The notes under the pieces were generated by a model. That model did not search any database, was not told where the DNA came from, and saw only the letters and a program-made list of their open reading frames with translations. The position numbers and the translations under genes were made by a program. From Thainema sp. (GTDB lineage Bacteria > Cyanobacteriota > Cyanobacteriia > Phormidesmidales > Phormidesmidaceae), in the NCBI GenBank assembly GCA_052168235.1, contig JBQLZK010000016.1, positions 53,371 to 117,370 on the forward strand: DNA of 64,000 bases. Reading direction: 5' to 3'. Below are positions 3,954 through 56,851 of the stretch, piece after piece. Position 1 is the stretch's first letter; each line of letters begins with the position of its first letter.

Positions 3954-3967
3954 TTATGAATTGCTGC

Positions 3968-4010
3968 AAAGAATGGGGCGGGTAGCCGAAGCTACCCACC
4001 CCATTCTTTT
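3968..4010. terminator. Probable bidirectional intrinsic terminator between convergent genes
   Basis: AAAGAATGGGGCGGGTAGC-CGAA-GCTACCCACCCCATTCTTTT; 19-bp arms with one mismatch. Confidence 0.65.
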
Positions 4011-4106
4011 GATCTAAATATGATGGAGCATCTGCGGATGCAAACGTTTCAAAAAATAATTGTGTTCTTATACGTAGACTGGGATCAACCAGTGTGTACT
4101 ACGTTC

Positions 4107-8237: not shown

Positions 8238-8325
8238 TACGAGTGAAGGAATGATGTCTTGCCGCGTAAGCTTAACTCACGGACAAAAGCGCAGCGCATT
8301 ACCTTTTTGGCCTAACGAAGAGAAT

Positions 8326-9222: not shown

Positions 9223-9322
9223 AACGATTGCACAAAATAACGTGATAAAGCGCCGCTACGCCTAGTATAGCGATCTCCAACTGGTGCAGGTTTAGACTGC
9301 ACAGCCAAGCAAGTCAATTGAT

Positions 9323-12390: not shown

Positions 12391-12477
12391 GAAGTCGCGA
12401 TCAAATGGTAACTCAAACTCTATCTTACTTAGCGCAGCCAAAAGACATGCATTTTCGGCAAATCCATGCCAAAAATG

Positions 12478-12558
12478 GGCTTTACTCATCATTAAACAGG
12501 ATTTACTTGACAATTAAATGATAAATAAATAGGATTTACTCATTCATTATTTATCATT
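12478..12558 (+). promoter_or_regulatory. Sigma70-type promoter overlapped by an inverted repeat and direct repeats
   Basis: TTGACA (12507-12512), 17-bp spacer, TAGGAT (12530-12535); inverted repeat AATGATAAATAA (12517-12528)/TTATTTATCATT (12547-12558); GG(A/C)TTTACT x3. Confidence 0.6.
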
Positions 12559-12774
12559 CAGGGATAAGAGATATTTTCAGGTCGCAACCATGCTGGTGAA
12601 ATTCCTTAGCGCTTCAAGCGCCTTGCCCCTGCCAGCTGACGGGTAATCGCGAGTGCAAATTGCACAATGTGCCGCCATCCAGCCCTGGTGCAGTCGTCGT
12701 CGCGTAATCGGATCTCAAACGCCTGGTTAGACCCTTTTTCATCTCAACTCCTCACAAAAACTGAGGCTGAAATT

Positions 12775-14196
12775 ATGGAGCAACTCACTCACCAAATTTT
12801 CGGCGACCGCTACCAGGTGCAGTCTTTATTAGGCCGTCAAGTTGGCAGACAAACGTTTTTAGCGACTGACTTAGCACAGCAAGAAATAGTCGTTTTAAAA
12901 CTTCTTTTGTTTGGGCCAGACTTCACCTGGGAAAATCTCAAACTGTTTGAGCGGGAGGCTAATACGCTCAAAGCACTAAACCATCCTGCTATTCCCAAAT
13001 ACCTTGATTCCTTTGATGTTGAGACAGGTATTGGGCGTGGATTTGCTCTAATTCAGAGCTATATTGATGCGCCATCTTTGGAAGCCGTTATTCAAGATAG
13101 CCGAAAATTTTCTGAAGCAGACGTCACTGCGATCGCAACCCAACTACTTAAGATTTTGAGCTATCTACATGCTCAAAATCCGCCTGTCATTCACCGCGAT
13201 ATTAAACCCAGTAATCTCTTGATTTCCAATACTTATGGTCATTCTGTTGGTGATCTTTATTTAGTTGATTTTGGCTCGGTACAAACAGTGGCCCACCAAA
13301 ATAGCGGCACTATCACGATTGTGGGTAGTTACGGCTATATCCCGCTAGAGCAGTTTGCCGGACAAACCACCACCGCCTCTGATTTATATAGTCTTGGTAT
13401 GACGTTAATCTATCTGATCACGGGCGTTCATCCGGCTGATTTACCCCAAACAAATGGACGCATTGAATTTCGTCATGACCAAATTAGTCAACGATTTTCT
13501 AGATGGTTGGAAAGGATGATTCATCCCCATTTGGATCGACGATTTGACTCAGCTCAGACCGCGTTGGCGGCTTTACAGTCTGAAGACGGCAGCTATGGAT
13601 ACTACCTCAATCTTAAGCCCACTATCAGTGATATTGAACTGCATCGCGATCGCGATCGCCTGGAAATCGTCATACCAAAAAGTTCTGATGATCCAGCGGG
13701 TTTCGGTTGTTTCTTGCTAATGGGTATGCTGCTCTTTTTGTTTGCCGCAAAATTTTTCATTACTCTATTCTTTCTGCTTCTAGCGAGCCTGTGCTTTTTT
13801 GCTAGTAGGCGCAAAAACAGAAAGCTCAAGGAGGTCATTAAGATTGACAGGAATGACAAGATTAGCCAATTTTTGTGTCTCGGATTTAAACAGTGGAATT
13901 TCCAATCTTCGGCCTTTGAGGACATTCAGCACTTAATTTACAATCCCGGCTACACCTTTGATCGCTATGTTGATGCTAATGGCAAAACTATACGGAGAGG
14001 AGAAGTTAAGGTTGCACCAAAGCTGTCGATTTATGCTAGCGACATAGAATATAAAGTGGGCGATAAACTGTCCTTGACCCAGCCAGAATTATGGTGGCTT
14101 GCTCAAGAGTTGAGCGACTTTCTTGATCTGGAAATTAAAGTTATTTACCCCACTCCTAAAGTTCCTCCAGAGCAAACCTGTGGAGGTGGTTGCTGA
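12775..14196 (+). CDS. Hanks-type Ser/Thr protein kinase with transmembrane segment and C-terminal CGGGC tail
   Basis: VVLK, FEREA, HRDIKPSN, DFG, SDLYSLG; hydrophobic stretch GFGCFLLMG...LLASLCFFA. ATG 12775 follows GAGG (track start 12667). Confidence 0.9.
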   Translation: MEQLTHQIFGDRYQVQSLLGRQVGRQTFLATDLAQQEIVVLKLLLFGPDFTWENLKLFEREANTLKALNHPAIPKYLDSFDVETGIGRGFALIQSYIDAPSLEAVIQDSRKFSEADVTAIATQLLKILSYLHAQNPPVIHRDIKPSNLLISNTYGHSVGDLYLVDFGSVQTVAHQNSGTITIVGSYGYIPLEQFAGQTTTASDLYSLGMTLIYLITGVHPADLPQTNGRIEFRHDQISQRFSRWLERMIHPHLDRRFDSAQTALAALQSEDGSYGYYLNLKPTISDIELHRDRDRLEIVIPKSSDDPAGFGCFLLMGMLLFLFAAKFFITLFFLLLASLCFFASRRKNRKLKEVIKIDRNDKISQFLCLGFKQWNFQSSAFEDIQHLIYNPGYTFDRYVDANGKTIRRGEVKVAPKLSIYASDIEYKVGDKLSLTQPELWWLAQELSDFLDLEIKVIYPTPKVPPEQTCGGGC

Positions 14197-14226: not shown

Positions 14227-14778
14227 ATGTTGCCAGAACAAAAAGATTTATACGCCAGGATCAGCCAATTTCAGATAAATGAACCGCACGCCCCATTTCC
14301 CTTTTCGGTAAAGCTTGCTTGGGAATACCAGTGGTCAGAAAACTATACCTATCGTGCTATTGAAGAATACAAAAAATTCATGTTTTTGGTGGCAACTACT
14401 GATCAAGAACTCTCTCCTTCTACAGTCGTTGACCGAGTTTGGCATCTTCATTTACTTTACACCCACTCTTATTGGAACGAATTTTGCCAAAAGATTATTC
14501 AAAAGAACCTTCACCATTATCCAGCGCCAGGAGGTGTCGAAGCGGGTTTGAACTATTACCAGCAATATTGCCAAACCCTAGAGTTCTATCGAGATCATTT
14601 TGGAACCCCACCTCCTGACATTTGGAATCAACCAACATTCAAAAGTGAAGGTGCATTATTTCAGTGGGTTGACCGAGTTCAATACTGGATTATTCCTAAA
14701 CCTAGCCCTTTGCTGATGCTTCAGGGCATCTGGCAAAAGCCGATCAGTTTATGGAAAACAGCAACGAGAGACAAATAG
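14227..14778 (+). CDS. Glycine-rich-domain protein-like (GRDP-like) core domain protein
   Basis: AIEEYKKFMFL...PSTVVDRVWHLHLLYTHSYWNEFC...LHHYP...Y..TL..Y..FG..PP.IW; RBS GAGGAG. Confidence 0.75.
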   Translation: MLPEQKDLYARISQFQINEPHAPFPFSVKLAWEYQWSENYTYRAIEEYKKFMFLVATTDQELSPSTVVDRVWHLHLLYTHSYWNEFCQKIIQKNLHHYPAPGGVEAGLNYYQQYCQTLEFYRDHFGTPPPDIWNQPTFKSEGALFQWVDRVQYWIIPKPSPLLMLQGIWQKPISLWKTATRDK

Positions 14779-14926: not shown

Positions 14927-14999
14927 AGCTGGTGACAAGACTCGAACTTGCGACCGGCTGATTACAAATCAGCTGCTCTACCAACTGAGCTACACCAGC
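14927..14999 (-). tRNA. trnT: tRNA-Thr(UGU)
   Basis: Reverse complement GCTGGTGTAGCTCAGTTGGTAGAGCA-GCTGA-TTTGTAA-TCAGC-...GTTCGAGT...CACCAGCT; anticodon TGT. Confidence 0.96.
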
Positions 15000-15176: not shown

Positions 15177-15250
15177 TGGACGTAACTGGACTCGAACCAG
15201 TGACCTCCACGATGTCAACGTGGCGCTCTAACCAACTGAGCTATACGTCC
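15177..15250 (-). tRNA. trnV: tRNA-Val(GAC)
   Basis: Reverse complement GGACGTATAGCTCAGTTGGTTAGAGCG-CCACG-TTGACAT-CGTGG-...GGTTCGAGTCC...TACGTCCA. Confidence 0.96.
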
Positions 15251-15293: not shown

Positions 15294-15876
15294 GCAGCTT
15301 CCATGTACCGAAATCGTTGCCGATTATGTATTCAATTTTACTCTATGCAATGCTCTGTAACATAAATTTGCTTGCACATTTTTTGCCAATTGAATTGGAA
15401 CGTGAGATGTGAGCAGTTCCCCGGCTGAACGTTCAAACCTAACTAGCGAAGAAGCAGTAGACGTTATCCAATCTGAAGCAGGGGTTTGTTCAGCGGATTT
15501 TACGTATTGCGTCGTTTTTGAGCACGTTTGAGGTAAATATGCAAGCCTTGTTCTCACTGAAAATGTCTGGTAATATCCGGCCCTAGATGTGTGTTCTATG
15601 TAGAAGAAAAACTTTTTCTGTTTGTGTAAGTACGTAGAAACTAATGATAAACTCCAGTAAATTCCATCATTCCTCGTAATGACTTCAGTGGAATTACTTG
15701 GAAAGGCATCATTGCTCAGAATCATCAGCGGTGTGGCTCTGCTTATTCAATTAAATAAAACGATAAGCAGATAAGAGGTAGTTTTCAGAAATAATCTGTT
15801 CGATTAATCTTTGACGGCTTTTTATTCGGGCGTTACGATTGCAGATTTCGTAGTGTGTTAAGCACTGTCAGTTGCA

Positions 15877-16896
15877 ATGTCGTCGTGTGACCAGGTGTGT
15901 GGAGTGAACTTATTAATACGTAAGGCCAGATTTGTCTGGCTATTTTTGGCAGGTCTGATACTGAGTCTGCTACTCGGCTATGCTCAGCAAGCGTCATTTC
16001 CGGCGGTTGCTCAGGAATCGCAGACCGCAACGTTGACGGTTGAGAATGTTGCAACGGCCAGCTTTACCCCTCCAGGTGGGACTCTTCAAACCGTGACATC
16101 CAATACCACAACGTTTACGGCAGTGGTGGAAGAGTCCGGCTTGCAAATTGTTAAGACCGCTGATCGGTCTGCCGCTGAGCCAGGTGACGTTGTCGTATAT
16201 CGACTGCTGATCCGCAACACTGGCACTGTTCCTATCAATAATGTGACAGTGGAAGACGAACTGCCGCTCGGCTTGCGCTACGTTGAGGGTTCGGCACGGG
16301 GAGCGATTGGTGTAGAGGGCAATTCAGCCGAATTTGCGATCGCAGATCCCACCGCCACTGGGCGCACACTGCAATTTGTCACAAATCAAACGCTGCTGCC
16401 GGATCAATCGATCTCGATTGCCTATGCGGCGCTACTGACGCCTGACGCAATTCGAGGATCGGGCCGCAACTTGGCAGTGGCATCAGGTACGACACCGAAC
16501 GGTCAGACCATCACCAGTAATACCGCCAGCCATCGCGTCTTCATTCGCCCCGGTATTTTGTCTGATTGCGGCACGATTGTGGGTCGGGTGTTTGTGGATA
16601 AGAACTTTGACGGACAGCAGCAGCCCGGTGAGGCGGGTGTGCCAAATGCGGTCATCTTCATGGACGATGGCAACCGGATTGTCACCGATGCCGACGGTCT
16701 GTTCTCGCTGGCTAACGTGATTGCCGGAAATCGCTCCGGCACATTGGATCTGACAAGCTTACCGGGATACACGCTGGCTCCAAATCTCTACTGGATTGAA
16801 GGCAATAGCCAGTCCCGTCTTGTTCGACTTCAGCCGGGTGGTTTGGCTCGGATGAACTTTGCCGTCACGCCTGCGTATGGGGAAGGACAGCAATAA
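15877..16896 (+). CDS. Secreted DUF11-domain protein with N-terminal beta-hairpin extension and C-terminal SdrD-B-like domain
   Basis: Signal peptide ending AVA-Q; DUF11 LQIVKTAD..PGDVVVY..NTG..VEDELP.G..YV; GTIVGRVFVDKNFDG..GEAGVPN..TDADG. True start may be slightly downstream. Confidence 0.85.
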   Translation: MSSCDQVCGVNLLIRKARFVWLFLAGLILSLLLGYAQQASFPAVAQESQTATLTVENVATASFTPPGGTLQTVTSNTTTFTAVVEESGLQIVKTADRSAAEPGDVVVYRLLIRNTGTVPINNVTVEDELPLGLRYVEGSARGAIGVEGNSAEFAIADPTATGRTLQFVTNQTLLPDQSISIAYAALLTPDAIRGSGRNLAVASGTTPNGQTITSNTASHRVFIRPGILSDCGTIVGRVFVDKNFDGQQQPGEAGVPNAVIFMDDGNRIVTDADGLFSLANVIAGNRSGTLDLTSLPGYTLAPNLYWIEGNSQSRLVRLQPGGLARMNFAVTPAYGEGQQ

Positions 16897-19800
16897 TGCG
16901 ATATCTCATGAATGTCAAGTTAGGACTCTGGTTGCTCTCGTCAATCCTGGCGATCTTTGGCTCCCTCTCGGCGGCTTCTGCGCAGGAGGTGGCATCCGGC
17001 TCCGCTGAACCGCCTCGGCTGTCGGACTGGAAAAACGAGGCGGAGGCGTCGAATACGGCAGAGGATCTGTTGCGATCGCGCCAGATCACGCCCAGTGAGC
17101 CGCTGCCTGCGGAGGCAACCTTCAGCACCACGACTGAAGAATTGGGCTTTGATCCGGCTGAGGAGGAGGGATTTCATCTATCAACCACAGATGAGGTTGA
17201 ACCCCAAACAGCTCAGCCAGTACTAGTTCCCCATCCGGCGACCAATCTCTTTGATCAGGAAACAGGCGGACGGGTGCTGTTTCCCGTGGGCGAACAGGCG
17301 ACTCCCGCCAATCGGCAGCGGGATATCACAGGCAGCTCGACTGGAACTGGCATCGGCAACAGCACTAGCAATAACGATCTGTTCGAAGCGCCGTTCAACA
17401 ATGCATTACCCGGTTCCTCTGATCCGTGGGGAGCGGGAGTGGATGAGATTACCGGGGAGCGCTTCCGACGGCCCGATGCGGGTGTCTCCGAACCAACGGC
17501 CTATGAGGGACTATTTGACTTACCGGATAATCCAGTCCTGCCAGCACCTGCGGCTCCTGGTGGGGAAGATGAAGGATTTCGCATCGAAGTTTATCCAATC
17601 GGGTTGGGTCGTGCGATCGCAAATGGCCGTTCTCTAGTTGAACTGGAAGGGATCGTGCTTGGCCCGGACGGGTCGCTGGTCTTAGAACCCGTCATCGTCA
17701 CGCTGACGGCAACGGCGGGTGAATTTCCAGGGGCCGACCAGGAACCGGATCGACCGGGCTTCCAGGTGGTGGCGCGGCAGGGTCGCTTTGTGGCGGGTTT
17801 GCAGTCAAGTCTAGACGCGCAGCAGGTGCGGGTGCGAGCTGCGATCGCGCGCAATGATCTGCTGGACGCGCTGGAGTTAGACGAAGAGGAATTCCGCGAG
17901 CTGTACGAAGACGATCGCTTCGGTACGGGGCTGTATGAGAATGAGTACGCTACGCCAACGGCGGTTGCGCCAGGATTAGAGGCGTTTACGCAGGTTGAGT
18001 TTGTCACCGAGCTGCGGCCTACGCTGCTAGCGGGTACGGTCAACCTGCGGATTGGGGAAGCGGGTACGGACTACTGGGGCAGCTTCCGCGAGTTTCTCAA
18101 TCCGGATGAACTGGATGATGGCGTCGCGTTTGACCTGTCCTCCGCCGTCTTTGGCATTGGCTCCATCGGCGAGTGGCAGTTCCTGGCTGCCTACAACAGC
18201 GAGCGGACGCTGAACGAAACCTGCGACGGTGGCGATCGGCTGTTCCGCGATACTCAGTTCTGTGAAGATCAGTATCCGGTCTATGGCGACAGCTCAACCG
18301 TAGATACGCTGACGCCATCCCAGGACAGCTTGTTTATCCGCTTCCAGCGGGATTCGCTTACTCCGGGAGCCGAACCGGACTTCTTCATGTGGGGCGACTA
18401 CGGCACCAGCGAGTTTTCCCGCGCCTCACAGTTGTTCACGGCTACGAGTCGGAATCTGCACGGCTTCAAGGCTAACTACAGTCTGGGCAATCTCCAGCTC
18501 ACGGCGCTATACGCTGACAACGTAGACGGATTCCAGCGGGACACGATTCCACCCGATGGCACCAGCGGTTACTACTTTGTCTCACGCCGACTGGTGATTC
18601 CGGGCAGTGAACAGGTCTTTATTGAGTTTGAGGAGCTGGGCCGTCCCGGCGTAGTGGTGGAGCGGGAACGACTCCAGCGGGGGCCAGATTACGAAATTGA
18701 CTATGACCGGGGCGCAATTATGTTCCGGGATCCCATTCAGGCCACCGAATTTGACATTTTTGGTAACTCCCTGGTGCGCCGAATTGTTGTCACCTACCAG
18801 TATGAAGGCGGCGGCGGTGGCGACTCCGACCTGATAGCGGGTCGCCTTCAGTACAACCTGGCCTACGGTTTTGACCGACCGAGCTGGGTAGGCGTTAGCT
18901 ACTTAAATGAAGACCAAGGCGATCAGGACTTTGAGCTGTTTGGCTTCGACTTCCTGCTGCCGATTGGTGATGTAGCCTTCATCGAAGGGGAATATGCCCA
19001 CTCTGACCACACCTCACTGACGTTTGGCGATGTTTCGGGCAATGCTTATCGTCTAGAGGCCAGCGCTAATTTCAATGAGGTCATTGCCCTGCGCGCCTAC
19101 TATCGGACGGTGGATGAAACGTTTGCCAACGATTCCACGTTTAGCTTTACGCCGGGACAAACCCGGATCGGTGGAGCGCTGTCAGCGGCGGTTACGTCCA
19201 CTACACGGGTCAATCTCCAGTACGACTTCGAGGAAAACTTCGGCATTGCGCCGCTGGTGATTACCGATTTAGACACGCTGCTCAATCCGGGCTTACAGCC
19301 AATCCCCGGTTCAGCGGTTGACAATACGCTGAGTACCTTCCGAGTCGGAGTTCAGCAGGAAATTGGTCGAGCCATCTTCAACTTGAGCTATGTGGATCGC
19401 GATCGCAACGATCGCACCCGACCCGATTCTTCACTGGATACCAATTCCAGTCAGCTCGTTTCTCAGTTGACGGTGCCGCTGGCGGAACGGCTGACGTTTC
19501 AGGCATTAAATGCGCTTAGTCTCAGCGATGGCGACGATCCGCTCTATCCCGACCGGACGGCCCTGGGCTTAAACTGGGCGGCATTCCCTGGCGTCAACTT
19601 GCGGTTGACCCAGCAGTTCCTCTACGGCGACTCGTTTGATGACACGTCTATCACCAGTTTAGACACGGTGATTGAGCAGGAGCTGGATGAAAATACGACG
19701 CTGCGCAATCGCTACTCGATTATTGGCGGCGTCAACGGCATTCGCGCTCAGTCTGCGCTGGGCCTGAATCACGCCTGGGTGGTTGCGCCGGGACTGCGCC

Positions 19801-20885
19801 TGAATCTGGGCTATGAGCGAATTAGCGGCGATATTTTTGCCGACACGGCTGTGGGGCAGCAGTATCGCCAGCCCTACACCGTCGCGCAAAGCTCTGGCGT
19901 CTTGGGATTACAAGAGGCAGACAGCTACAGCATTGGCCTTGACTACACCGATGACCCCGATTTCAAAGCCAGTGCGCGATTCGAGCATCGCGATTCTGAA
20001 GCGGGCGACAATACGGTTTGGTATGCGGCGGCAGCCGGACGCTTGACGCCGGAACTGACGGTGCTGGCCCGCTATCAGCAGTCAAATTTCTCCAACCAAA
20101 TTCTGACCGGACTGCTGAGCGATACGTCCACGCTGCGGGTCGGGTTAGCCTACCGCGATCCGGACAGTGACGCATTCAACGCCTTACTGCGCTACGACTA
20201 TCGGCGCAATCCGGGTACCACACCTGATTCGATTTTGGTGGATTCCGGTCGCGGTTCAGAGGATCACACCTTCGGGCTAGAGGCCATCTATGCACCGACC
20301 TGGCGCTGGGAGTTCTATGGCAAGTATGCCCTGCGCTACACCAACTCGTTTATCGCCGATGATTTGACCGTTTCCAATGCAATCCATCTGGCGCAGGGTC
20401 GGGTGGCCTATCGCCTGGGCTATCGCTGGGATGTAGCGGGCGACATGCGCTGGATTGGTCAAACCGATTCGGGCTTTAACGAAACCGGATTTGCGCTAGA
20501 GCTGGGTTACTATGTGACCCCTGACTTACGACTGGGCGTTGGCTATAGCTTTGGTGCAGTCGATGATGATGGTTTCGAAGGCTATCGCTCCGATGGTGGG
20601 CCGTATCTGGCGGTCAATCTGAAGGTGAATGAGCTGCTACAGCGCTTTGGCGCACCGGATATTTCACCGGAACAGCTTCAGGAAACGGCGATTGAGGCCG
20701 ATGCCAATGTGGCGGATGGGGCGGATGAGGATGAAGCCGATGTCTCCGCCGAGGCAGAACCCATAGATGTCAGTTCATCAGCGGCTGGATCGGCGGCTGA
20801 TGCCCTGGCGTTTGCGTCTCATTCAGGACTAGAAGCTGATTTGGAGTCAAAGCAGGCACTCAAACTTGGGCTAGGGGAGGAGTAA
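16896..20885 (+). CDS. Very large predicted outer-membrane beta-barrel protein with N-terminal acidic region and Ig-like domain
   Basis: Signal peptide ending ASA-Q; ANGRS Ig-like segment; several hundred residues of alternating amphipathic strands with aromatic girdles (LRLNLGYE, WEFYGKYALR, LRLGVGYSFG); TAATG overlap with the upstream gene. Confidence 0.72.
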   Translation: MRYLMNVKLGLWLLSSILAIFGSLSAASAQEVASGSAEPPRLSDWKNEAEASNTAEDLLRSRQITPSEPLPAEATFSTTTEELGFDPAEEEGFHLSTTDEVEPQTAQPVLVPHPATNLFDQETGGRVLFPVGEQATPANRQRDITGSSTGTGIGNSTSNNDLFEAPFNNALPGSSDPWGAGVDEITGERFRRPDAGVSEPTAYEGLFDLPDNPVLPAPAAPGGEDEGFRIEVYPIGLGRAIANGRSLVELEGIVLGPDGSLVLEPVIVTLTATAGEFPGADQEPDRPGFQVVARQGRFVAGLQSSLDAQQVRVRAAIARNDLLDALELDEEEFRELYEDDRFGTGLYENEYATPTAVAPGLEAFTQVEFVTELRPTLLAGTVNLRIGEAGTDYWGSFREFLNPDELDDGVAFDLSSAVFGIGSIGEWQFLAAYNSERTLNETCDGGDRLFRDTQFCEDQYPVYGDSSTVDTLTPSQDSLFIRFQRDSLTPGAEPDFFMWGDYGTSEFSRASQLFTATSRNLHGFKANYSLGNLQLTALYADNVDGFQRDTIPPDGTSGYYFVSRRLVIPGSEQVFIEFEELGRPGVVVERERLQRGPDYEIDYDRGAIMFRDPIQATEFDIFGNSLVRRIVVTYQYEGGGGGDSDLIAGRLQYNLAYGFDRPSWVGVSYLNEDQGDQDFELFGFDFLLPIGDVAFIEGEYAHSDHTSLTFGDVSGNAYRLEASANFNEVIALRAYYRTVDETFANDSTFSFTPGQTRIGGALSAAVTSTTRVNLQYDFEENFGIAPLVITDLDTLLNPGLQPIPGSAVDNTLSTFRVGVQQEIGRAIFNLSYVDRDRNDRTRPDSSLDTNSSQLVSQLTVPLAERLTFQALNALSLSDGDDPLYPDRTALGLNWAAFPGVNLRLTQQFLYGDSFDDTSITSLDTVIEQELDENTTLRNRYSIIGGVNGIRAQSALGLNHAWVVAPGLRLNLGYERISGDIFADTAVGQQYRQPYTVAQSSGVLGLQEADSYSIGLDYTDDPDFKASARFEHRDSEAGDNTVWYAAAAGRLTPELTVLARYQQSNFSNQILTGLLSDTSTLRVGLAYRDPDSDAFNALLRYDYRRNPGTTPDSILVDSGRGSEDHTFGLEAIYAPTWRWEFYGKYALRYTNSFIADDLTVSNAIHLAQGRVAYRLGYRWDVAGDMRWIGQTDSGFNETGFALELGYYVTPDLRLGVGYSFGAVDDDGFEGYRSDGGPYLAVNLKVNELLQRFGAPDISPEQLQETAIEADANVADGADEDEADVSAEAEPIDVSSSAAGSAADALAFASHSGLEADLESKQALKLGLGEE

Positions 20886-20894
20886 AGGATCAGC

Positions 20895-23030
20895 ATGAAC
20901 TCAAAGGCATCGATATCGAAGCGCAAAGTTAGCATTCATTCCCTAGGCTGGGCCGTTGTACCCACTCTGCTGCTGACCGCCAGTCCAACGCTGAGTCAGG
21001 CTGATGCGGATTCAGAGTCCGCCGCAGTCGAAACCGTTCCGGTGCAGGCAATTGTCAGCAGCGATCAGGATACGGTAGCACCCGATAGTGGTTTGACGCT
21101 GCGTGAAGCAATTCTCTTGGCCAACGGTGAACTTGCGATCGCAGATCTGAGTCCCGCCGAACAGGCCCAAGTTGAAGCATTAGCTCCCAGCGCTACTTCG
21201 CAGATTGGCTTTAATTTACCTACCGATCAAACCGTCATTCAGCTTCAGGAAATGCTGCCGCCGTTAGCCTCGCCTGGACTCGTACTGGATGGTACAACGC
21301 AAGCGGGGTATGACGCCGAGACCTCTGCGATCGCAGAAGTGGATATGCCGATTCCACTAGTCAGCATTACGCCTGCGGCAGGTCAGGAGGTACTGCGGGG
21401 GTTAACCATTGTGGCCGATGGCATCACAGTTAGAGGATTGAGCCTCTACGGCTTCACCTCCACGATTGGCCGCACCGCAACCACGCCACCCGCTGATATC
21501 TTCATCGCTCACCCCGATCCCCCGCCCGACACTAGCGATCAGCAGCCTCCGGCCCGGTCGTTTGCGTTCATTAATGAGCGAGACACCCCGCCCCAGGACG
21601 TCACCATTGAAAATAACTGGCTGGGCATTATGGCCGATGGTGATTTCCCAGCTCAACCGTCTTCGTTTGGTGTTTACGTCTTCAACAGCCAGGGCGCAAC
21701 CATCCGCAATAACTTTATCGCCAACCACGAAGGCAGCGGCATTATCACCTCCGTACGGGCGCAAAACATGGAGGTGATCAACAACGCCATTGTCGGCAAC
21801 GGGATCGCTGGCATGCCCGACGGCATTCGCTTGGAAGGTGACATCAGCGACTCGCTAATTCAGGGCAACGTGATTTGCGGCAGCGATGGCAGCGGTATCT
21901 ATGCCTTCAAGCCCGATGGTTCCGTGGAGATTCGCGAAAACGACATCAAGTACAACGGTCGCCGCCTGCGTCGCGCTGCCGTATATCTAATGGGCGACAA
22001 TCACCAGGTTTTAAATAATGCGATTACCTATCAGACAGGTTCCGGAGTTGCGATCGCAGCCTACCCACCCAGCATCGGCAATATTATTCAGGGCAACCAG
22101 TTCCTCGGCAATGAGGGCCTGAGTATTGACCTGGTCATGTTTAACGCCACGGGTGTGCAGGAATACGCCTGGGGCGACGGCCCCAATCCGCCGCGTAATT
22201 CGGTAAACCGCCGTCAGGACACAGGCAATGCCGCTATTAATTCGCCTCAGCTACAGCTCGATGAGGCAGCGGCAGCAGGTGGCTTAGTGACACTGCAAGG
22301 GGAAGCCGCACCGGATGCTGATGTCGTGATTTACCGCGTTGCGCCTGCCTTTGATCCACCGACTAACCGCTTTCCCGGCTATGGCGATCTGCTAGAGCCA
22401 ATTGCCTCTGTAAAAGCGGATGCTGATGGTTTATTTTCCACTACAGCGGAACTGGAACCAGGCGATCTGATTAGCGCGATCGCAACCCTGCCCGAATATG
22501 GCACCTCAGAACCCTCGCCCTTTGTCGCCATCGGCAATGCGGGAACTCCCGTGCCAGCCACACCCGAGATTCCTCAGTGCGTCACAGCCCCTGCGCCTGA
22601 GCCTGAACCACCCCCGGCTCCCGAACCGCTGGTGCTCAACGTGCCGCGCAATGTCCACTTTGCCCTCGATCAAGCCACTCTCAGCACGGAAAGTCAGGCC
22701 GTGCTGGACGAAATCGCGGCAGTCCTGCTGGAATATCCGTTTATTACGGTTGAACTGCAAGGCCACACCGATCCGCGAGCCAGCTATCAGTACAACTTGG
22801 ATCTCTCCAACCGTCGCGCTCTGGCTGTCCGTAATTACCTCCTGTCCCAAGGCGTCGCCAACGAGCGGATGACGATTCGCGCCCTCAGTGAATCGCAGCG
22901 CGCCACTACGGGTGATAGCGTGGTCGATTACGCCCGCGATCGCAGAGTCGAAGTCATCTTCCGCGACCTGCGCGGCCTTGATATTGTCTTTGAGCGCCAA
23001 GAAGGCGACCTGCAAATTGAAGGTCGATAG
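20895..23030 (+). CDS. Right-handed beta-helix protein with C-terminal OmpA-like peptidoglycan-binding domain
   Basis: LTLREAI (CSLREA-like) motif; parallel beta-helix repeats (IENNWLG, IRNNFI, IQGNVI); Pro-rich linker; VHFALD..GHTD..YNLDLSNRRA..RRVE. Confidence 0.88.
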   Translation: MNSKASISKRKVSIHSLGWAVVPTLLLTASPTLSQADADSESAAVETVPVQAIVSSDQDTVAPDSGLTLREAILLANGELAIADLSPAEQAQVEALAPSATSQIGFNLPTDQTVIQLQEMLPPLASPGLVLDGTTQAGYDAETSAIAEVDMPIPLVSITPAAGQEVLRGLTIVADGITVRGLSLYGFTSTIGRTATTPPADIFIAHPDPPPDTSDQQPPARSFAFINERDTPPQDVTIENNWLGIMADGDFPAQPSSFGVYVFNSQGATIRNNFIANHEGSGIITSVRAQNMEVINNAIVGNGIAGMPDGIRLEGDISDSLIQGNVICGSDGSGIYAFKPDGSVEIRENDIKYNGRRLRRAAVYLMGDNHQVLNNAITYQTGSGVAIAAYPPSIGNIIQGNQFLGNEGLSIDLVMFNATGVQEYAWGDGPNPPRNSVNRRQDTGNAAINSPQLQLDEAAAAGGLVTLQGEAAPDADVVIYRVAPAFDPPTNRFPGYGDLLEPIASVKADADGLFSTTAELEPGDLISAIATLPEYGTSEPSPFVAIGNAGTPVPATPEIPQCVTAPAPEPEPPPAPEPLVLNVPRNVHFALDQATLSTESQAVLDEIAAVLLEYPFITVELQGHTDPRASYQYNLDLSNRRALAVRNYLLSQGVANERMTIRALSESQRATTGDSVVDYARDRRVEVIFRDLRGLDIVFERQEGDLQIEGR

Positions 23031-23059
23031 AGTTGCGCGTACTAGCACTTTATTTCGCT

Positions 23060-23095
23060 GTTCTCTTAAGTCTCAAGTCTCTAGTTTCTAAATCT
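23060..23095. repeat. Degenerate heptamer tandem repeat (STRR-like)
   Basis: tctcttaagtctcaagtctctagtttctaaatct, period 7. Confidence 0.45.
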
Positions 23096-23111
23096 GAATT
23101 GGATTGAACTC

Positions 23112-26100
23112 ATGGGTTTGCCATTCCGAACGTCACAACTCGCATCTATTGCGTCACAGCCGTCTTCGACCCGCCAGCGTAGCTCATTCTCATTACACAA
23201 GACGACGAGCCGTTCTGGTCGATTTAGCTGGTCGCGCTTTCTACGCAGTCTTGTACTCGTTGTGATTTTTGCGATCGCAACGTTTGGCTATGCACCTCCA
23301 TCCCGTGCTCAGGCTACAGCTCCATTCAATTGTGATGGAACGTTATACATTACGAACGCTTCAACCGATCAAGATCCAACTCGTTTAGATTTCTTAGATA
23401 CTAGCGGCGATTTTGACATCGATCCCGTTTTGAATCAAACGCCACCTTCATTTACTTATAACGCAGCTGGTTTCCGTCCCCAAGATGGCTTTATCTATGC
23501 CATTCGACCCAATAACCGGGGCCTTCCTGCCCCTGCTGCTGCTACACAACCTCGCTCAACTATCTATCGAATTGATAGCACGGGTGCAGTAACCCCACTA
23601 GGCGTACCACCAGGCATCACTAATGCCGATTATTTTGCTGGGGATGTTGGACCAAACGGTACGCTTTACGTCTATGCTCCGGTTCAGATCACAGCAGGCA
23701 GTGCACCATCAGGATTATTAACAGAAATAGATGTAACGACAGCTCCGCCAACTGTAATCGACTCTTTTACGGTTCAACGTACGGATAACAGCAATGTCCC
23801 AGAACTATTCGATGTTGCCTTCAACCCTGAAGATGGTCAACTTTATGGTTTTGATCGGCAAGAAGGCGATATTGTCCGAATTGATGTCAATACTCCGATA
23901 GCTCCTGGCGTACTTGGTGCAGTGCCACTTGCCGCAACTGGTAATGCCCCCGGTACAGAAATTGTTGGAGGAACATTTTTTGATGCCTTCGGACGGATAT
24001 TTCTCTATGCAAATAATGGCCAACTCTACAGAGGGCAAGTTGAGCCTGGCAACAACTTCATTCAATTTGAATTACTTTCTAGTCCACCAGGGGTCGGCAA
24101 TAACGATGGTGCATCTTGTCCTTATGCCCCTCTAGTTGAGAAAACAGCATCCAGTACTGTTGTACAAGCTGGAGACATTGTCACTTATACATACAGCTTT
24201 ACAAACTCTAATTTTGTTGACTTACAGAACGTCACATTCACTGATACGCTGCTGACAAATGGTGCGACAGACGGTCGGACATTCGTTCCAGGATCGCTGC
24301 AAACTATCAGCGGCAATATCTTAAATGGCACAACGACAAACAACTATGGTGTGGGTGCCGATGCCAATAATCTTGTGATTAACGGCATTACTCTATCTCC
24401 TGGCACAACGGGTGCGTTTTCGGTAGATGTGCAAATTGCTCCTGGCACACCAGCAGGTACCTTCGAAAATCAAGCTGTTGTTGAAACAACAACGGCTACT
24501 ATCATTCCGCCTGGTGGTGGCCCACCGACGCAAATCAATCCTCGAATCGTAGCCCGAACCGACAATCCGAACACACCCGATAATTTTCCAGACCCCACCC
24601 CAATTGACACAACACCCTCTGCAACGGGGGCAATCGGTATTGCCAAACGGGCTGGTCAACCTGCGGTTAACAGCGACGGTACGATTGATATTCAGTACTC
24701 GCTGATCGTTGAGAACTTGGGATCAGTCACGGTCAACAATGTCCAAATTACGGAAGACTTTACCCAAGAAACCTTTATCTCTCCAGCCACGTTTGAGATT
24801 ATTCAGTCTCCTCGAAGTGTGGATGGATTAACTCCGAATCCGAATTTTGCTGGAACACCGGCTAATCCAAACCTGCTGCAAGGTAATGACTCATTAGCCC
24901 CTGGAGAGATTGGTTCTGTTTTCTTCATTGTGCGGGTCACACCCAATGGTAATTATGGCCCCTACAACAATACTGCGATCGCAACTGGCACCGATCCGAG
25001 TGGTAATCCAGTTACCGATCAATCAAACGATGGACAAGAGCCAGACCCCAATAACAACGGTAATCCTGGCGATCCAAATGAGAATACACCGACTGTTGTT
25101 ACGCCACAGATTGCAGACTTAGCAGTTGAAAAAGGAGTCGACAATCCAGATCCCAACATTGGCGATACGATTACCTACACCATTACCCTGCGTAACTTGG
25201 GGCCAAGTGATACAACCAACGTCACGGTTCAAGAAGACCTGCCCGCTGGTTTTACGGCAACCGCTCCGGCGGGGACAACCTACAATGCAGCAACGGGAGT
25301 ATGGTCTGTTCCAGATCTAGATGCAGGTCAGTTTGTTGTCCTAACCCTCCAGGGAACCTTCGACGGTACGCCGTTTGAAAATGTCGCTGAAATTACAGGT
25401 TCGAGTGTGCCTGACCCGAATCTAGCCAACAACATATCAAGGGTTCAAGTTCCATCTGTAACCGCAGATTTATCGTTGGAAAAAACGCTAGTTGATACCG
25501 ACGAAATTGCAGTTGGCGATGTGATTACCTTTGAGATTGAGCTGACTAACAGTGGCCCTGATACGGCAACTAATATTCAAATTGCCGATGATTTTCCAGA
25601 TGGATTTGAGTTTGTCGAAGCTCGACCAGCGACAGGAACCTACGATGAAACAACCAATATTTGGTCAATTGCCAGTTTGGCTAGCGGAGAAAGCACCTCT
25701 CTACTATTAACTGGCCGACTCACGGCTGATTCTGTCACCAACGTGGCCGAAGTTTCGAGTGTTGACCAAACGGATCCGGATTCGACACCGAATAACCGCG
25801 ATCCGAATGAGGATGATTACGGCACGATTACTGTTAGTATTTCGCCTGATTTGATTTTGCAGAAGCGAATTACAGCGCTGGTTCAAGATGGGGCGGTAAC
25901 TCGCTTTACTCAACCCGTCGCTAATCCGGTGCGGCCTGGATTTGTGGGTGAGGTGTCGTTACCTCCATCGGCTCAAGTCACCAGTCAAGACGTGGTGGAA
26001 TACACCATCTATTACTTGGCGAGTGGCACAACGGCTAATAATGTCCAGATTTGCGACGCCATTCCCGTTGGAACCTCCTATGTTGCTAACACTCTGTCAA

Positions 26101-26297
26101 CCGCATCGGGGACTGCAAATCCCACTCAGCTCAGCGATGCTAATGATGGAGATGGAGGACAGTTTTTGCCTGAGTTAACGCCTGCACCTCAGCCTTGTGC
26201 AAATAGCATGAATCCCAATGGTTCGGTACTAGTTAATGTCGGTAATATTCCAGCCGGACAATCTGGGTTTATTCGGTTTAGCAGCCAAGTTGATTAA
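23112..26297 (+). CDS. Large secreted adhesin-like protein: beta-propeller-like head plus five DUF11 repeats, the last truncated
   Basis: Signal ending SRA-Q; head FNCDG..YNAAG..DGFIYA..NNDGASCP; repeats begin PLVEK, IGIAK, DLAVEK, DLSLEK, DLILQK. Confidence 0.85.
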   Translation: MGLPFRTSQLASIASQPSSTRQRSSFSLHKTTSRSGRFSWSRFLRSLVLVVIFAIATFGYAPPSRAQATAPFNCDGTLYITNASTDQDPTRLDFLDTSGDFDIDPVLNQTPPSFTYNAAGFRPQDGFIYAIRPNNRGLPAPAAATQPRSTIYRIDSTGAVTPLGVPPGITNADYFAGDVGPNGTLYVYAPVQITAGSAPSGLLTEIDVTTAPPTVIDSFTVQRTDNSNVPELFDVAFNPEDGQLYGFDRQEGDIVRIDVNTPIAPGVLGAVPLAATGNAPGTEIVGGTFFDAFGRIFLYANNGQLYRGQVEPGNNFIQFELLSSPPGVGNNDGASCPYAPLVEKTASSTVVQAGDIVTYTYSFTNSNFVDLQNVTFTDTLLTNGATDGRTFVPGSLQTISGNILNGTTTNNYGVGADANNLVINGITLSPGTTGAFSVDVQIAPGTPAGTFENQAVVETTTATIIPPGGGPPTQINPRIVARTDNPNTPDNFPDPTPIDTTPSATGAIGIAKRAGQPAVNSDGTIDIQYSLIVENLGSVTVNNVQITEDFTQETFISPATFEIIQSPRSVDGLTPNPNFAGTPANPNLLQGNDSLAPGEIGSVFFIVRVTPNGNYGPYNNTAIATGTDPSGNPVTDQSNDGQEPDPNNNGNPGDPNENTPTVVTPQIADLAVEKGVDNPDPNIGDTITYTITLRNLGPSDTTNVTVQEDLPAGFTATAPAGTTYNAATGVWSVPDLDAGQFVVLTLQGTFDGTPFENVAEITGSSVPDPNLANNISRVQVPSVTADLSLEKTLVDTDEIAVGDVITFEIELTNSGPDTATNIQIADDFPDGFEFVEARPATGTYDETTNIWSIASLASGESTSLLLTGRLTADSVTNVAEVSSVDQTDPDSTPNNRDPNEDDYGTITVSISPDLILQKRITALVQDGAVTRFTQPVANPVRPGFVGEVSLPPSAQVTSQDVVEYTIYYLASGTTANNVQICDAIPVGTSYVANTLSTASGTANPTQLSDANDGDGGQFLPELTPAPQPCANSMNPNGSVLVNVGNIPAGQSGFIRFSSQVD

Positions 26298-26314
26298 GTT
26301 CAGCAGCTAAACAC

Positions 26315-26349
26315 CACAAAAGGGGAGCACTTGGTGCTCCCCTTTTGTG
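26315..26349. terminator. Bidirectional terminator closing the surface-protein operon and selO
   Basis: Perfect 16-bp arms CACAAAAGGGGAGCAC-TTG-GTGCTCCCCTTTTGTG between convergent genes. Confidence 0.75.
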
Positions 26350-26406
26350 ATCGATCTAATCATGCCATCGCCATAATTTTTTGGGTCATCTGGTCGAGGC
26401 ATCAGC

Positions 26407-27855
26407 TCAGCAGTTTTGGGTGCGGATCTGTTTCAGCAAGTCATAAAACGGCTGCCAGTTGTCGTCTACCGCAATCGGTTCCCAAACCGCTTCAATTTCT
26501 GGACGAACTAAAACAGTCATTGGATTATGACGTTTGAGTCGCTGTGCTACCTCATCCATTTCATCATTTGTAAGATGGGCGAGACAGTGCTGATAGAGCA
26601 AACGCCACTGGGCGAGGCATTGAGCCGCCTCTGGATCAGACTGTTCCATCACAGCAGGGAAGATCGACTGTGCATCCTCACGCCACTGGGGCAAAAACTG
26701 CTGACGGAGCTGAGCAAAAAACTCGTGGTAGCCCACTTCCGTTTCACTTAGCAGCCGCAGTATCGATTCGAGCAGTTCATCGGCCATTTCAATCGGCAGA
26801 TGGTCGTAGCCCAAGTCGCCAAAGCCTAGACGGTTCAGCATTCGCTGTCGGTAGGTGGCGCGATATCGATCCTCGTAACCTTCCAGTCCAGCCTCTAGAT
26901 TGGCGGCTGGAATCACCATTTTGAGCGGGATTTGCAGCTTCTCCAGGTTCCATCGGCACATCAGCGGCTGATTGCCGTAGCGATAGCGCCCCATGTAGTC
27001 AAAATAAGCCGCAGTAAAGCGCGGGTCATAGGTATTAATAAACGCATAGGGGCCGTAGTCAAAGCTTTCGCCCGTAATGGACATATTGTCTGTGTTTAGC
27101 ACCGCATGGCAAAAGCCAACGGACATCCACTGTGCGACTAAGTCGGCCATTCGCTCAACCAGTTCAGCGTAAAAGCGGGCATAGCAATCTGGATCGCCCA
27201 GTAAATGAGGATAGTACTGCTCAATTACGTGGTCGAGCAGAATTTGCACCAGGTCTTTGCGCCCGTAGTAGTGCAGCCGCTCAAATGTGCCAAAGCGGAT
27301 GTGCGATCGCGAAAATCGCACCATGACTGAAGACCGAGTGGGCGAGGGTTCATCACCGCGCCAGAGGGATTCGCCCGTTTCGACCAAACTCAAACAGCGG
27401 GAGGTGCGTACGCCTTGATAGTGCAGCGCTTCGGCAGCGAGGACTTCTCGTACGCCGCCTTTCAGCGTCAAGCGCCCATCGGCAGTCCGTGAGTAGGGGG
27501 TGCGGCCAGAGCCCTTGGTGCCAAAGTCATACAGCTCGCCATCCATGCCGCGCACTTGACCATAAATGAAGCCCCGACCATCGCCCAGGAATGGGTTATA
27601 TTCGCCAAACTGGTGGCCGTGATAGCGCAGCGCGAGAAAAGGACGAATCGCTTCGAATTTGCCAAACGCGCCGATAAAATGCTCGTCTGTGACTTGCTGT
27701 GGATCGAGACCAATTTGCGACAGTAGGTCATCATTGCGAAAGCGCAACTGATGCTGCGGGAATTCTGCCGCGTCAACGATGTCATAGTAGTCATCGCCGA
27801 GAATTTCGAGCGCGGGTTCGTAGTCAAGCTGATGCAGAAAGGGATTGTGAGTCAT
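26407..27855 (-). CDS. selO: Protein adenylyltransferase SelO (YdiU family)
   Basis: [56 protein letters not shown] 27855 preferred because the longer ORF runs through a repeat. Confidence 0.93.
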
Positions 27856-29436: not shown

Positions 29437-30381
29437 TTACCGAAAGTCGCATTCATCCAGACAAAAGCGATCGCACATGCGGACAGGAGAATCGGGGCGT
29501 CCCTGCATGGGGCACTGCTGATTGGTGCAGAAGAGGCAATCGGCTTGAATCGGACGCAGTAGCTGATGCGTGGCGTAGAGATAGATGTCTTGGTTGATAT
29601 ATCCCTGCGCTTCCAGTTCTGAAATGGAGTCGCTGATCAGAATGGCCGTATGAATGCCCAAGTGCTGACGGGCAGCGTTGATGTTGGCCAGCACTTGGCT
29701 AAAGCGCTGACTGCTGTCGTGAATCTTAATCAGCACCCGCTGCGGCTGATTTTGAAAGCAGGGCGGCGATTCCTGAGCAAAGTAATCCTGATACTGTAGC
29801 GTGTAGGTGCCGTCGGAGTAATGGCGGGTGCGAATGCGGCGGTGGAACAGGACATCCGGTTCTCCCAGGTCATCCAGCACATACCACCAGGATTTATGCC
29901 AAGCGGCTTCCGGTAAATGCAAAATCGTGGCGATCTGCTCACGGGAAAATCCGGATGCGGCCAGGATTGCTTCAACCTGCGATCGCACAATATTGCGGCC
30001 CAGTGTCTGCGTGGACGACTGGCAGCGCGTCACCTGCTGGTAATCTACCGTGGAGCAGCAGGCCGCCTGAGCTGATGGAGCGGTATGTACCGTGTCAGCT
30101 AGAACGCAGTTGACTACGTCATAGTGCAGCACTCCGTCAATCACCTGGGCATGGGAAACAGGCACGCCCAGGGTGGCTCGAATATGTCCCACTCGATGCG
30201 CTGGAGCCACCTGCGGATAGCAATCGACAAACAGAGATCGCAACGTCGCCTCATCTGCGATCGCAAGTGCCAGCACGATCCGCTCTCGCAGCTCGGTGGC
30301 ATCGACGGGCGACTCATCAATGGCAGACGGAGGGTGGGGCTGGCGTTGGGGCTGAGCAGTCCAAGATACCGGATAAACCAT
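29437..30381 (-). CDS. Hypothetical protein with C-terminal Cys cluster
   Basis: Long ORF ending CLFCTNQQCPMQG...MCDRFC; ATG 30381 preferred over the track start 30468. Confidence 0.65.
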   Translation of the reverse strand: MVYPVSWTAQPQRQPHPPSAIDESPVDATELRERIVLALAIADEATLRSLFVDCYPQVAPAHRVGHIRATLGVPVSHAQVIDGVLHYDVVNCVLADTVHTAPSAQAACCSTVDYQQVTRCQSSTQTLGRNIVRSQVEAILAASGFSREQIATILHLPEAAWHKSWWYVLDDLGEPDVLFHRRIRTRHYSDGTYTLQYQDYFAQESPPCFQNQPQRVLIKIHDSSQRFSQVLANINAARQHLGIHTAILISDSISELEAQGYINQDIYLYATHQLLRPIQADCLFCTNQQCPMQGRPDSPVRMCDRFCLDECDFR

Positions 30382-30821
30382 AAGCGCCTGATGCGTAGCG
30401 GTTGATTGCGGTGAATTGCAGTTGCGATCGCAAAATGAACTTGCTAATAGCGCAAGCCTTGACTTCATCTTGCGGCAATCTCAGCGATTCGCGATGCGAC
30501 TTGTGACAAAGCGTTGAATTCTCATACAAATCCTTGTAGCTCCACTGAGAGAATTTATAAACGTCCAAATAACACAACATAACTTTGCTTTAAATCGAGC
30601 CAAGGTGCGATCGCAATTTAGAATTTGATGCTGAGTTCTGATATTGGATTCTAATTCTGGACGTTGTAATTATTCATTTAAGTTGTGTTGACCTACGAAA
30701 ATTCACAGGGATGGTTTTCCTATTGTTTGAAGATCATTGTTTTCAAAATGGTGAAATCACTCAGAAAATCACTGAACCGACATGCAATGACTTCGCAGTT
30801 TCGGCTTGCCCAATCTAAAAC

Positions 30822-56825: not shown

Positions 56826-56851
56826 TTCGGCAAAGGAAACAAATCAAAGTC

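Follow-up and report, generated by a model that had tools for sequence, protein, structure and literature searches.

A cyanobacterial operon with a candidate isopeptide domain split between two exported proteins

A four-gene operon with a truncated domain in its last gene and an orphan hairpin in its first

We analysed a 64,000-nucleotide stretch of the genome of the cyanobacterium Thainema sp. (assembly GCA_052168235.1, contig JBQLZK010000016.1, positions 53,371 to 117,370 of the forward strand); this whole 64-kb stretch is referred to as the window, and positions are counted from its first nucleotide. Four genes, here called A, B, C, and D, lie head-to-tail on its forward strand. The last domain of protein D resembles domains that close themselves with an internal isopeptide bond but appears to lack its final two strands, and protein A carries, behind its signal peptide, a segment that may supply them. 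A reading made from the sequence alone had proposed that A donates this hairpin to D and becomes covalently locked to it through Lys918 of D and Asn57 of A. That interpretation is supported by the sequence comparisons and structure models described below; each refuting condition checked by computation had an outcome favourable to it. The genes are as follows:

15877–16896, forward strand: gene A, 339 amino acids (aa), putative donor/anchor protein
16896–20885, forward strand: gene B, 1329 aa, its start ATG overlapping the stop codon of A
20895–23030, forward strand: gene C, 711 aa
23112–26297, forward strand: gene D, 1061 aa, putative acceptor/tip adhesin

The gene that follows the stop codon of D, a convergent SelO gene on the opposite strand, is only 110 bp away, so there is no hidden continuation of D downstream.

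Protein A, the putative donor, was divided into four parts:

15877–16014, forward strand: signal peptide of A (aa 1–46), read from the sequence, hydrophobic core FVWLFLAGLILSLLLGY, ending in ...AVAQ
16015–16134, forward strand: orphan donor hairpin of A (aa 47–86), ESQTATLTVENVATASFTPPGGTLQTVTSNTTTFTAVVEE; Asn57 codon 16045–16047, Asn76 codon 16102–16104
16135–16542, forward strand: complete CLIPPER/DUF11 domain of A (aa 87–222), triad Lys93/Asp127/Asn198, Pfam DUF11 match at 89–219
16543–16893, forward strand: C-terminal domain of A (aa 223–339), SdrD_B/CarboxypepD_reg-like, highly conserved

The orphan segment (ENVATASF...TSNTTTF) directly follows the hydrophobic leader (...PAVAQ), and its N-x-A motif, with Asn57 at 16045, lies exactly where the sequence-only reading had placed it. 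In Pfam, whole A matched DUF7507 (E = 1.4e-13) and DUF11 (7.5e-10, 39.6 bits), with SdrD_B (1.6e-4) below threshold; in NCBIfam it matched TIGR01451 (8.5e-17). The C-terminal part scanned on its own gave SdrD_B (4.9e-5) and CarboxypepD_reg (0.016), both below the Pfam threshold. The domain between hairpin and C-terminal part, which scores above the Pfam threshold and has the full triad, is a CLIPPER/DUF11 domain in its own right.

Protein D, the putative acceptor, consists of a leader followed by three regions:

23355–24122, forward strand: DUF6923 repeat domain of D (aa 82–337), Pfam PF21959 at E = 1.7e-28, likely binding head
24126–25835, forward strand: four complete CLIPPER/DUF11 domains of D, about aa 339–500, 506–664, 666–784, and 785–908
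25836–26294, forward strand: truncated C-terminal acceptor domain of D, termed D5 (aa 909–1061), CnaA-like sandwich ending after strand 7

The residues of the isopeptide triads in these domains are:

Domain 1: Lys344/Asp378/Asn453
Domain 2: Lys512/Glu548/Asn620
Domain 3: Lys674/Glu708/Asn757
Domain 4: Lys791/Asp826/Asn877
Last domain (D5): Lys918 (codon 25863–25865) and Asp982 (codon 26055), no Asn; Cys981-Asp982 codons 26052–26057

Whole D matched DUF11 (E = 6.4e-65, 217 bits) and DUF6923 (1.7e-28) in Pfam, and TIGR04226, ‘isopeptide-forming domain-containing fimbrial protein’, in NCBIfam (2.7e-10). Domains 1–4 match Pfam DUF11 above threshold and each have a full triad; the assignments of Lys, acid, and Asn made earlier from the sequence held after one-residue corrections. 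The last domain differs. No N-x-A motif follows residue 877 of D, and the protein ends with GFIRFSSQVD and a stop codon, a stretch that corresponds to the seventh strand (G-x-x-G-x-I-x-F) by comparison with the four intact domains. Since that motif is missing and the chain ends after strand 7, D5 is a split domain rather than a complete CLIPPER member. A profile–profile comparison of D5 with the complete domain of A gave a probability of 95% (E = 4e-8). The C-terminus of D has neither an LPXTG motif nor a hydrophobic tail. D5 also contains a conserved pair of cysteines, Cys981 beside the catalytic Asp and another before an NPNG turn, which could be disulfide-bonded; the paper on CLIPPER domains gives disulfides in about 30% of domains of this type (PMC12617251).

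The window’s genome is 99.99% complete. A profile search of its 39,396 six-frame open reading frames (ORFs) found exactly one donor and one acceptor, the full acceptor domain scoring E = 6e-49 and the donor hairpin 3.4e-10, with runners-up at E = 0.24 and 0.15; A is a single-copy gene in this genome.

Conservation of the truncated domain and of the hairpin

Twenty orthologous operons were fetched. A was present in all of them, B directly followed A in all of them, and C was found in 18; the two operons without C are L034 and L040, from genomes G082 and G085, and the C protein of L036 is devoid of its OmpA part. Thus, the conserved core consists of A, B, and cargo. The D-type gene has a variable body and a common C-terminal domain of 160–190 aa in 19 of the 20 operons, the twentieth being cut by a contig end; the sequence-only reading had suggested a survey for this co-occurrence of truncated domain and A hairpin.

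Twenty C-terminal domains, from 18 fetched loci and the window, were aligned. Eight positions are invariant (20/20): K16, which is Lys918 of D, R17, Y62, Y65, C79, D80, which is Asp982, G135, and F154. In every row the stop codon comes right after the same G..RF... strand. The claim that the fifth repeat of D keeps Lys918 and an Asp and then stops short of an N-x-A hairpin holds for all 20 aligned domains, that of the window included. A search of 1.84 billion representative proteins with the acceptor profile returned 13,014 matches at E ≤ 0.001, and the best 150 were inspected. These comprised 128 giant multi-repeat proteins with a partial match and 22 full-length matches. All of the latter end at most three residues from the protein C-terminus and retain the Lys, EYTIY, C-D, and RF motifs; an N-terminal hairpin was found in none of these 22 acceptors among the best 150 of 13,014. 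The early stop of D5 is shared by the family and is not accidental.

The donor side is equally constrained. Asn57 is invariant in 30 of 30 orthologues of A, where it always lies a few residues behind the leader, whose A-x-A/AQ end lines up across the same 30 sequences. Among 121 database homologues, 120 have Asn57 and the remaining one is a fragment cut at its N-terminus; in a set of 81 sequences, drawn from 80 named species and the window, it occurs in all 81. Position 59 is Ala or Gly in 120 of the 121. The triad of A’s own domain, Lys93/Asp127/Asn198, is invariant in the same two sets (121/121 and 81/81). Most invariant columns of the 30-row alignment of A fall within its C-terminal domain. 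All three residues of the proposed joint, Asn57 on one protein (120/121, 81/81) and Lys918 and Asp982 on the other (20/20), are thus retained in homologues. Since the orphan segment on its own resembles closing hairpins only weakly (see below), the observation rests on this conservation.

Relatives of A were sought in 101 related genomes, which are kin, so that counts across them are not independent. They were found in 67 (in 63 at E ≤ 1e-60). A and an acceptor occur together in 60 of these genomes, A alone in three, an acceptor alone in five, and neither in 33. Given this kinship and the common operon of the two genes, the co-occurrence demonstrates linkage and is no independent test. Beyond this set, the A-operon locus was recognised in at least 545 of 577 candidate stretches of species genomes, many of them from filamentous cyanobacteria, and the homologues bear only such database names as ‘DUF11 domain-containing protein’. 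The anatomy of the two proteins, its conservation, and the co-occurrence of the two parts are direct observations on these sequences.

Donor-only, acceptor-only, and two-ended proteins in relatives

A paralogous system has larger anchors of 520–550 aa. All five such loci carry an N-x-A hairpin after the leader (SNRAEATY, HNEATYTY, QNQAAYSY, NNRAAFSY, and DNQAVYRY), followed by an inserted domain and then the CLIPPER and SdrD_B-like core, and the cargo proteins of these loci end in the same truncated domain. In still longer anchors, of 833 aa and 1397 aa, the mature N-terminus also carries the hairpin. A third architecture was found in seven proteins from six genomes and three genera, which combine a leader-proximal hairpin (...PAPGT-I-x-NQATGSF...SN-V-V) with a C-terminal acceptor domain; we refer to them as shaft-type proteins. 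With their locus labels, they are:

L058, 1740–6404, reverse strand: shaft-type protein, 1555 aa
L063, 608–5821, forward strand: shaft-type protein, 1738 aa
L064, 10789–12477 and 13099–16080, reverse strand: two shaft-type proteins, 563 and 994 aa
L065, 13468–16383, reverse strand: shaft-type protein, 972 aa
L067, 544–4746, forward strand: shaft-type protein, 1401 aa
L068, 2596–6660, reverse strand: shaft-type protein, 1355 aa

The shaft-type proteins adjoin acceptor-only proteins and a donor-only anchor. The existence of donor-only, acceptor-only, and two-ended members suggests a logic of base, tip, and shaft, with which longer fibres can be built in relatives; head-to-tail chains or polymers of shaft-type proteins are possible. 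These architectures fit only with joining in trans. The window’s genome has no shaft-type protein.

An unsplit ancestor, in which the acceptor is fused to the hairpin and the A core in one chain, was found neither among the 22 full-length matches within the best 150 nor among the long A-like proteins of genomes G060 and G092, in a search that was not exhaustive.

A 345-aa ORF of L065, cut by a contig end, was not counted as shaft-type, since its pattern match is an internal closing hairpin. Two further loci have unusual reading frames. In L062, an 825-aa ORF (8626–11100, forward strand) that begins with leader and hairpin overlaps an 801-aa ORF (10857–13259, forward strand) that is read in a different frame and ends in an acceptor; a frameshift or assembly error may have broken up a single shaft-type gene. 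On the reverse strand of L048, the acceptor domain lies in a 483-aa ORF (3394–4842) with a 24-nt overlap with the end of a 1355-aa DUF11 ORF (4818–8882); the two ORFs may be distinct genes or parts of a cargo gene with a frameshift.

Predicted structures of the two halves and of their complex

Residues 903–1061 of D modelled alone with AlphaFold2 (AF2) gave a mean predicted local distance difference test score (pLDDT) of 76.3 and a predicted template modelling score (pTM) of 0.74. A Foldseek search with this model gave weak CnaA-like and pilin rows, none of them reaching E ≤ 0.001. When these candidates were realigned with VIA-align, the top rows were pilin domains with Lys-Asn bonds: residues 187–307 of RrgB D2 (Z 8.6, root-mean-square deviation 2.5, 107 residues aligned) and SpaA (Z 7.1), where a Z near 8 is middling by the tool’s own note. 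By this alignment, D5 has a CnaA-like beta-sandwich fold. The RrgB D2 isopeptide joins Lys193 to Asn318 beside Asp241 (PMC2886109). The range aligned with D5 thus covers Lys193 and Asp241 and ends before the strand with Asn318, which agrees with the expectation that the fifth domain is not a full sandwich. CnaA-like domains form their bond between the first and the penultimate strand, as in the CLIPPER structure 9IFR (Lys715/Asp748/Asn806; PMC12617251). PDB sequence searches with one internal D domain and with whole D yielded nothing usable. Protein A modelled alone had a pLDDT of 82.6 and a pTM of 0.56, its own domain reaching pLDDT 92–96.

We next consider the complex of D 903–1061 with A 45–88, predicted from alignments made in this analysis (20 rows for D and 30 for A), a choice that counts as a caveat. 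The hairpin was placed on the truncated domain with an interaction score (ipSAE, interaction prediction score from aligned errors) of 0.77, compared with 0.02 for the best control; the individual runs gave 0.72, 0.77, and 0.78. In the tool’s calibration, 116 of 157 solved complexes and 2 of 215 mismatched pairs attained this mark. The runs had at least 94% of their contacts in common, and the pLDDT of the partner was at least 77. On A, the interface comprises residues 53, 55–66, and 71–85; the stretches 55–66 and 71–85 are placed against the Lys-bearing and Asp-bearing strands of D5. D5 residues 74–80, the strand ending in Cys-Asp, pair with A 59–64, while the Lys strand, residues 12–18, pairs with A 73–78; Lys918 contacts Ala59, Ser75, and Thr78, and Asp982 contacts Ala59 and Thr60. 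A hairpin serving as strands 8 and 9 would be expected to give the topology seen in the model. Binding of the hairpin to D5, which had been proposed from the sequence, is thus supported by the prediction.

Proteins B and C and the surroundings of the operon

Protein B has a signal peptide, a variable region of ~230 aa, and a conserved region of ~1040 aa. Scans of Pfam and NCBIfam assigned it to no family at threshold, with a sub-threshold match to DUF2490 only, and a PDB sequence search found no relative at E ≤ 10 apart from chance rows. The Atlas clusters closest to it bear the names ‘putative TonB-dependent receptor’ and ‘outer membrane protein’. B is presumably a very large outer-membrane beta-barrel outside any described family. 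Protein C has a signal peptide, a right-handed beta-helix, and a C-terminal OmpA-like peptidoglycan-binding domain (Pfam Beta_helix 2.3e-13, NosD 2.7e-10, OmpA 8.8e-18).

The flanks of the operon are unrelated to it. Upstream are a NACHT/STAND nucleoside triphosphatase (NTPase) gene (10042–12513, reverse strand, 823 aa, with an NCH2 C-terminal domain), a Ser/Thr kinase gene divergent from it (12667–14196, forward strand), whose product has a C-terminal membrane segment and a domain without assignment, and, just before the operon, genes for tRNA-Thr(TGT) (14927–14999, reverse strand) and tRNA-Val(GAC) (15177–15250, reverse strand). Farther downstream of SelO are a phycobilisome linker gene and a chemotaxis-like cluster (53664–63846, forward strand) encoding CheR-TPR, a double CheW, two CHASE3-type methyl-accepting chemotaxis proteins, a CheA-CheW-receiver hybrid kinase, and CheB. 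Chemotaxis clusters of this sort usually control pilus-based motility or phototaxis in filamentous cyanobacteria. Two ORFs, 14227–14778 (forward strand, 183 aa) and 29437–30468 (reverse strand, 343 aa, with a Cys-rich C-terminus), matched no Pfam family at E ≤ 1e-5.

The G+C content rises from 0.43–0.46 at 12–16 kb to 0.57 at 16–22 kb and is 0.48 across the 3′ half of D. A horizontally acquired island was considered on account of the upstream tRNA genes and of the 57% G+C against 43–46% in the flanks, and was set aside because the operon is conserved across the family. In a scan for promoters and terminators, counts did not exceed those in shuffled sequences; a single promoter-like site was noted at 15811–15839.

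Discussion

We put at about 60% the probability that the operon encodes a two-piece outer-membrane-anchored adhesin whose parts are joined by a split CLIPPER (DUF11, CnaA-like) isopeptide domain. D would be exported with an incomplete last domain that has strands 1–7, with Lys918 on strand 1 and the catalytic Asp982, and is devoid of strands 8–9. Exported A would begin, once mature, with a free hairpin made of the two missing strands, Asn57 occupying the equivalent of the penultimate strand. The hairpin would insert into the open sandwich of D, its first strand beside the Asp strand and its second beside the Lys strand. The completed Lys918/Asp982/Asn57 pocket would then most likely ligate by autocatalysis, the reaction that intact CLIPPER domains carry out in a single chain; for the covalent Lys918-Asn57 bond itself, we infer this from the invariance of the triad. 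The conserved C-terminal domain of A may hold the adduct at or in the giant barrel B, and the OmpA-like domain of C may fasten the complex to peptidoglycan. The exposed adhesin would be the DUF6923 head of D on a stalk of four cross-linked CLIPPER domains. The compartment of joining and the order of events are likewise parts of the proposal. The window would represent a minimal tip-plus-base version of the system.

Several results weigh against this proposal. The resemblance on which it started is faint: a profile–profile comparison did place the orphan segment on the closing hairpin of A’s own domain, with Asn57 on Asn198, but the likeness is weak when taken alone (E = 0.071). A Pfam scan of the 44-aa hairpin segment gave nothing at E ≤ 10, and BLASTP of A 45–140 against D aligned the domain cores only, with no extension into the hairpin. 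D5 itself falls below the Pfam DUF11 threshold (17.4 against 24.6 bits, E = 0.006), matching profile positions 11–61 of 114. AF2 folds D5 alone with core strands at pLDDT 85–93 and flags no instability, and the model of A alone has the N-terminal extension in strands at pLDDT 59–85, its packing on A being ambiguous. In the complex model, Asn57 is part of the interface list but is not among the 25 best-defined pairs, and the contacts of Lys918 do not include it. It is possible, moreover, that halves of split domains tend to pass such models by their likeness to solved intact domains and engineered Catcher/Tag pairs. Covariation of hairpin and acceptor subtype among cognate pairs from 16 operons gave no clean pattern in a comparison that was underpowered and confounded by kinship; two further operons yielded no hairpin motif by the pattern used. 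Three metatranscriptome runs of one study (word share 0.12 each) had nothing mapped on 15700–26500, which is no evidence either way. Finally, the passage of D across the outer membrane is unexplained by the proposal; an usher-like export, tip first, would be the obvious analogy.

Some of these results are also what other explanations would predict. The hairpin might complete D5 without any covalent bond, Lys918, Asp982, and Asn57 being kept for packing or hydrogen bonding. All of the binding evidence fits such a joint equally, the best-defined model contacts of Lys918 are with Ala59, Ser75, and Thr78 and not with Asn57, and two sources provide precedents: some DUF11 domains have no bond (PMC12617251), and oligomers of the Asn mutant of BsaA, a fibre protein discussed below, are SDS (sodium dodecyl sulphate)-stable until heated (bioRxiv 10.1101/2024.11.04.621531). 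We nevertheless consider a purely non-covalent joint unlikely, because the triad is invariant across the split and recurs in the four intact domains of D and in the domain of A, and an invariant buried Lys and Asp are hard to explain without the chemistry. An arrangement in which the hairpin serves A itself or another partner, as edge strands on A’s own domain or by docking in B, and D5 is a stable seven-strand variant, would account for the confident folding of D5 alone, for the beta-structure of the extension at moderate confidence in the A-alone model, and for the weak likeness of the hairpin to closing hairpins. It is very improbable in our estimate: A’s own domain, with Lys93/Asp127/Asn198, is complete and so offers no open site, the hairpin also occurs on shaft-type proteins without an A core, and the complex score stands at 0.77 against 0.02.

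A further possibility concerns D5 rather than the hairpin. The domain is always the last part of a cargo protein that varies elsewhere, and it is always encoded next to B; several cargo genes can share one locus. It might thus be a sorting or secretion signal read by the barrel B, in a role like that of type IX secretion C-terminal domains, with the N-terminal segment of A unrelated to it. We find this improbable as the whole explanation, since it accounts neither for the invariant Lys and Asp with a matching invariant Asn hairpin on A, nor for the two-ended proteins and the specific complex model; a sorting role and a joining role are not mutually exclusive. That D is merely a 3′-truncated pseudogene or an assembly error, with a chance resemblance in A, is scarcely credible. 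With respect to the last strand, the stop codon falls at the same place in all 20 aligned domains and in all 22 full-length sequences among the best 150, and the 110 bp downstream lead straight into the convergent SelO gene. No support for an artefact was found, and it was rejected on the grounds of conservation.

The proposed split domain can be compared with several known systems. CLIPPER domains (DUF11, PF01345; 9IFR, PMC12617251) have the same CnaA-like sandwich, the Lys on strand 1, the catalytic Asp, and the Asn on the penultimate strand. Their bond is formed within one chain, whereas strands 8–9 and the Asn of the last domain of D would be encoded on A; the accessible text of the CLIPPER paper mentions intermolecular bonds only for other systems (PMC12617251). 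Two systems with such bonds use a related principle. BsaA of Clostridium perfringens assembles by ‘donor-strand exchange and lock’, in which N35 is joined to K74 with E56, and mutants in N35, K74, or E56 lose oligomers (bioRxiv 10.1101/2024.11.04.621531); for a Sulfolobus thread, an N-terminal donor segment and an intermolecular isopeptide were proposed (PMC9715654). In both, as in the proposed A–D joint, a leader-adjacent N-terminal segment enters the sheet of the next subunit and a spontaneous intermolecular isopeptide follows. Both differ in fold (TasA-like or thread subunit), in donating a single strand, in being homopolymers, and in belonging to a Gram-positive bacterium or an archaeon. 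The system of the window would instead belong to a two-membrane bacterium and donate a hairpin of two strands from a split CnaA-like domain, with distinct tip, shaft, and base proteins and a dedicated giant barrel. Pfam and NCBIfam scans of the operon proteins found no member of the TasA/BsaA family, the fold being CnaA-like. A residue set like that of BsaA, with Asn on the donor and Lys and an acid on the acceptor, is conserved in A and D, where a corresponding bond may form.

In chaperone-usher pili (Fim, Pap), the Ig-like subunit is incomplete until the next one inserts its N-terminal extension, the tip adhesin acts as acceptor only, and the operon includes a gene for an outer-membrane barrel. 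The predicted joint between A and D follows the same scheme of an incomplete Ig-like subunit completed by the next N-terminal extension, with two donated strands rather than one and a probable covalent lock. No FimD/PapC-type usher or PapD-type chaperone was found among the four operon proteins in Pfam and NCBIfam. Sortase pili (RrgB, SpaA) provide the closest structural matches of D5 and share the logic of tip, shaft, and base; the link between subunits would here be made by the internal isopeptide chemistry of the domain and not by a transpeptidase, and no sortase family was detected among the window’s 33 scanned ORFs. SpyTag/SpyCatcher and SnoopTag/SnoopCatcher are man-made splits of CnaB-type domains into a large Lys-containing part and a small part that ligate spontaneously. 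The pair described here would be a CnaA-type domain split in nature and maintained by selection across hundreds of species.

No description of this system was found in the literature, subscription journals and preprint supplements being outside the search. The chemistry, the fold, and the principle of donation followed by locking are known; what the alignments and models support as new is a natural heterotypic CnaA-type split in a two-membrane bacterium, widespread and unstudied. A broader claim would be that the operon represents an undescribed class of fibre assembly in two-membrane bacteria, in which modular tip, shaft, and base proteins are clicked head-to-tail by split CLIPPER domains, with self-ligating joints that need no sortase, chaperone, or known usher, a giant barrel as the hold, and a natural Catcher/Tag pair in more than 500 cyanobacterial species. 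This we advance tentatively, at a little under even odds.

Spontaneous isopeptides have so far been known mainly as bonds inside individual pilin domains of Gram-positive bacteria; between subunits, they are known from BsaA and archaeal threads. The hypothesis is directly testable with two small recombinant fragments. If it is true, an evolved two-strand CnaA-type Tag/Catcher pair, with orthogonal variants in one genome, would be a source of protein-ligation tools. Gram-negative-type bacteria would then join different proteins by spontaneous isopeptide chemistry, and fibre assembly would have one more route in addition to the chaperone-usher, type IV, type V, curli, and sortase routes. Little is understood of adhesion, mat formation, and gliding surfaces in filamentous cyanobacteria, and the proposed joint would give a role to a conserved, unnamed operon that many of these organisms carry.

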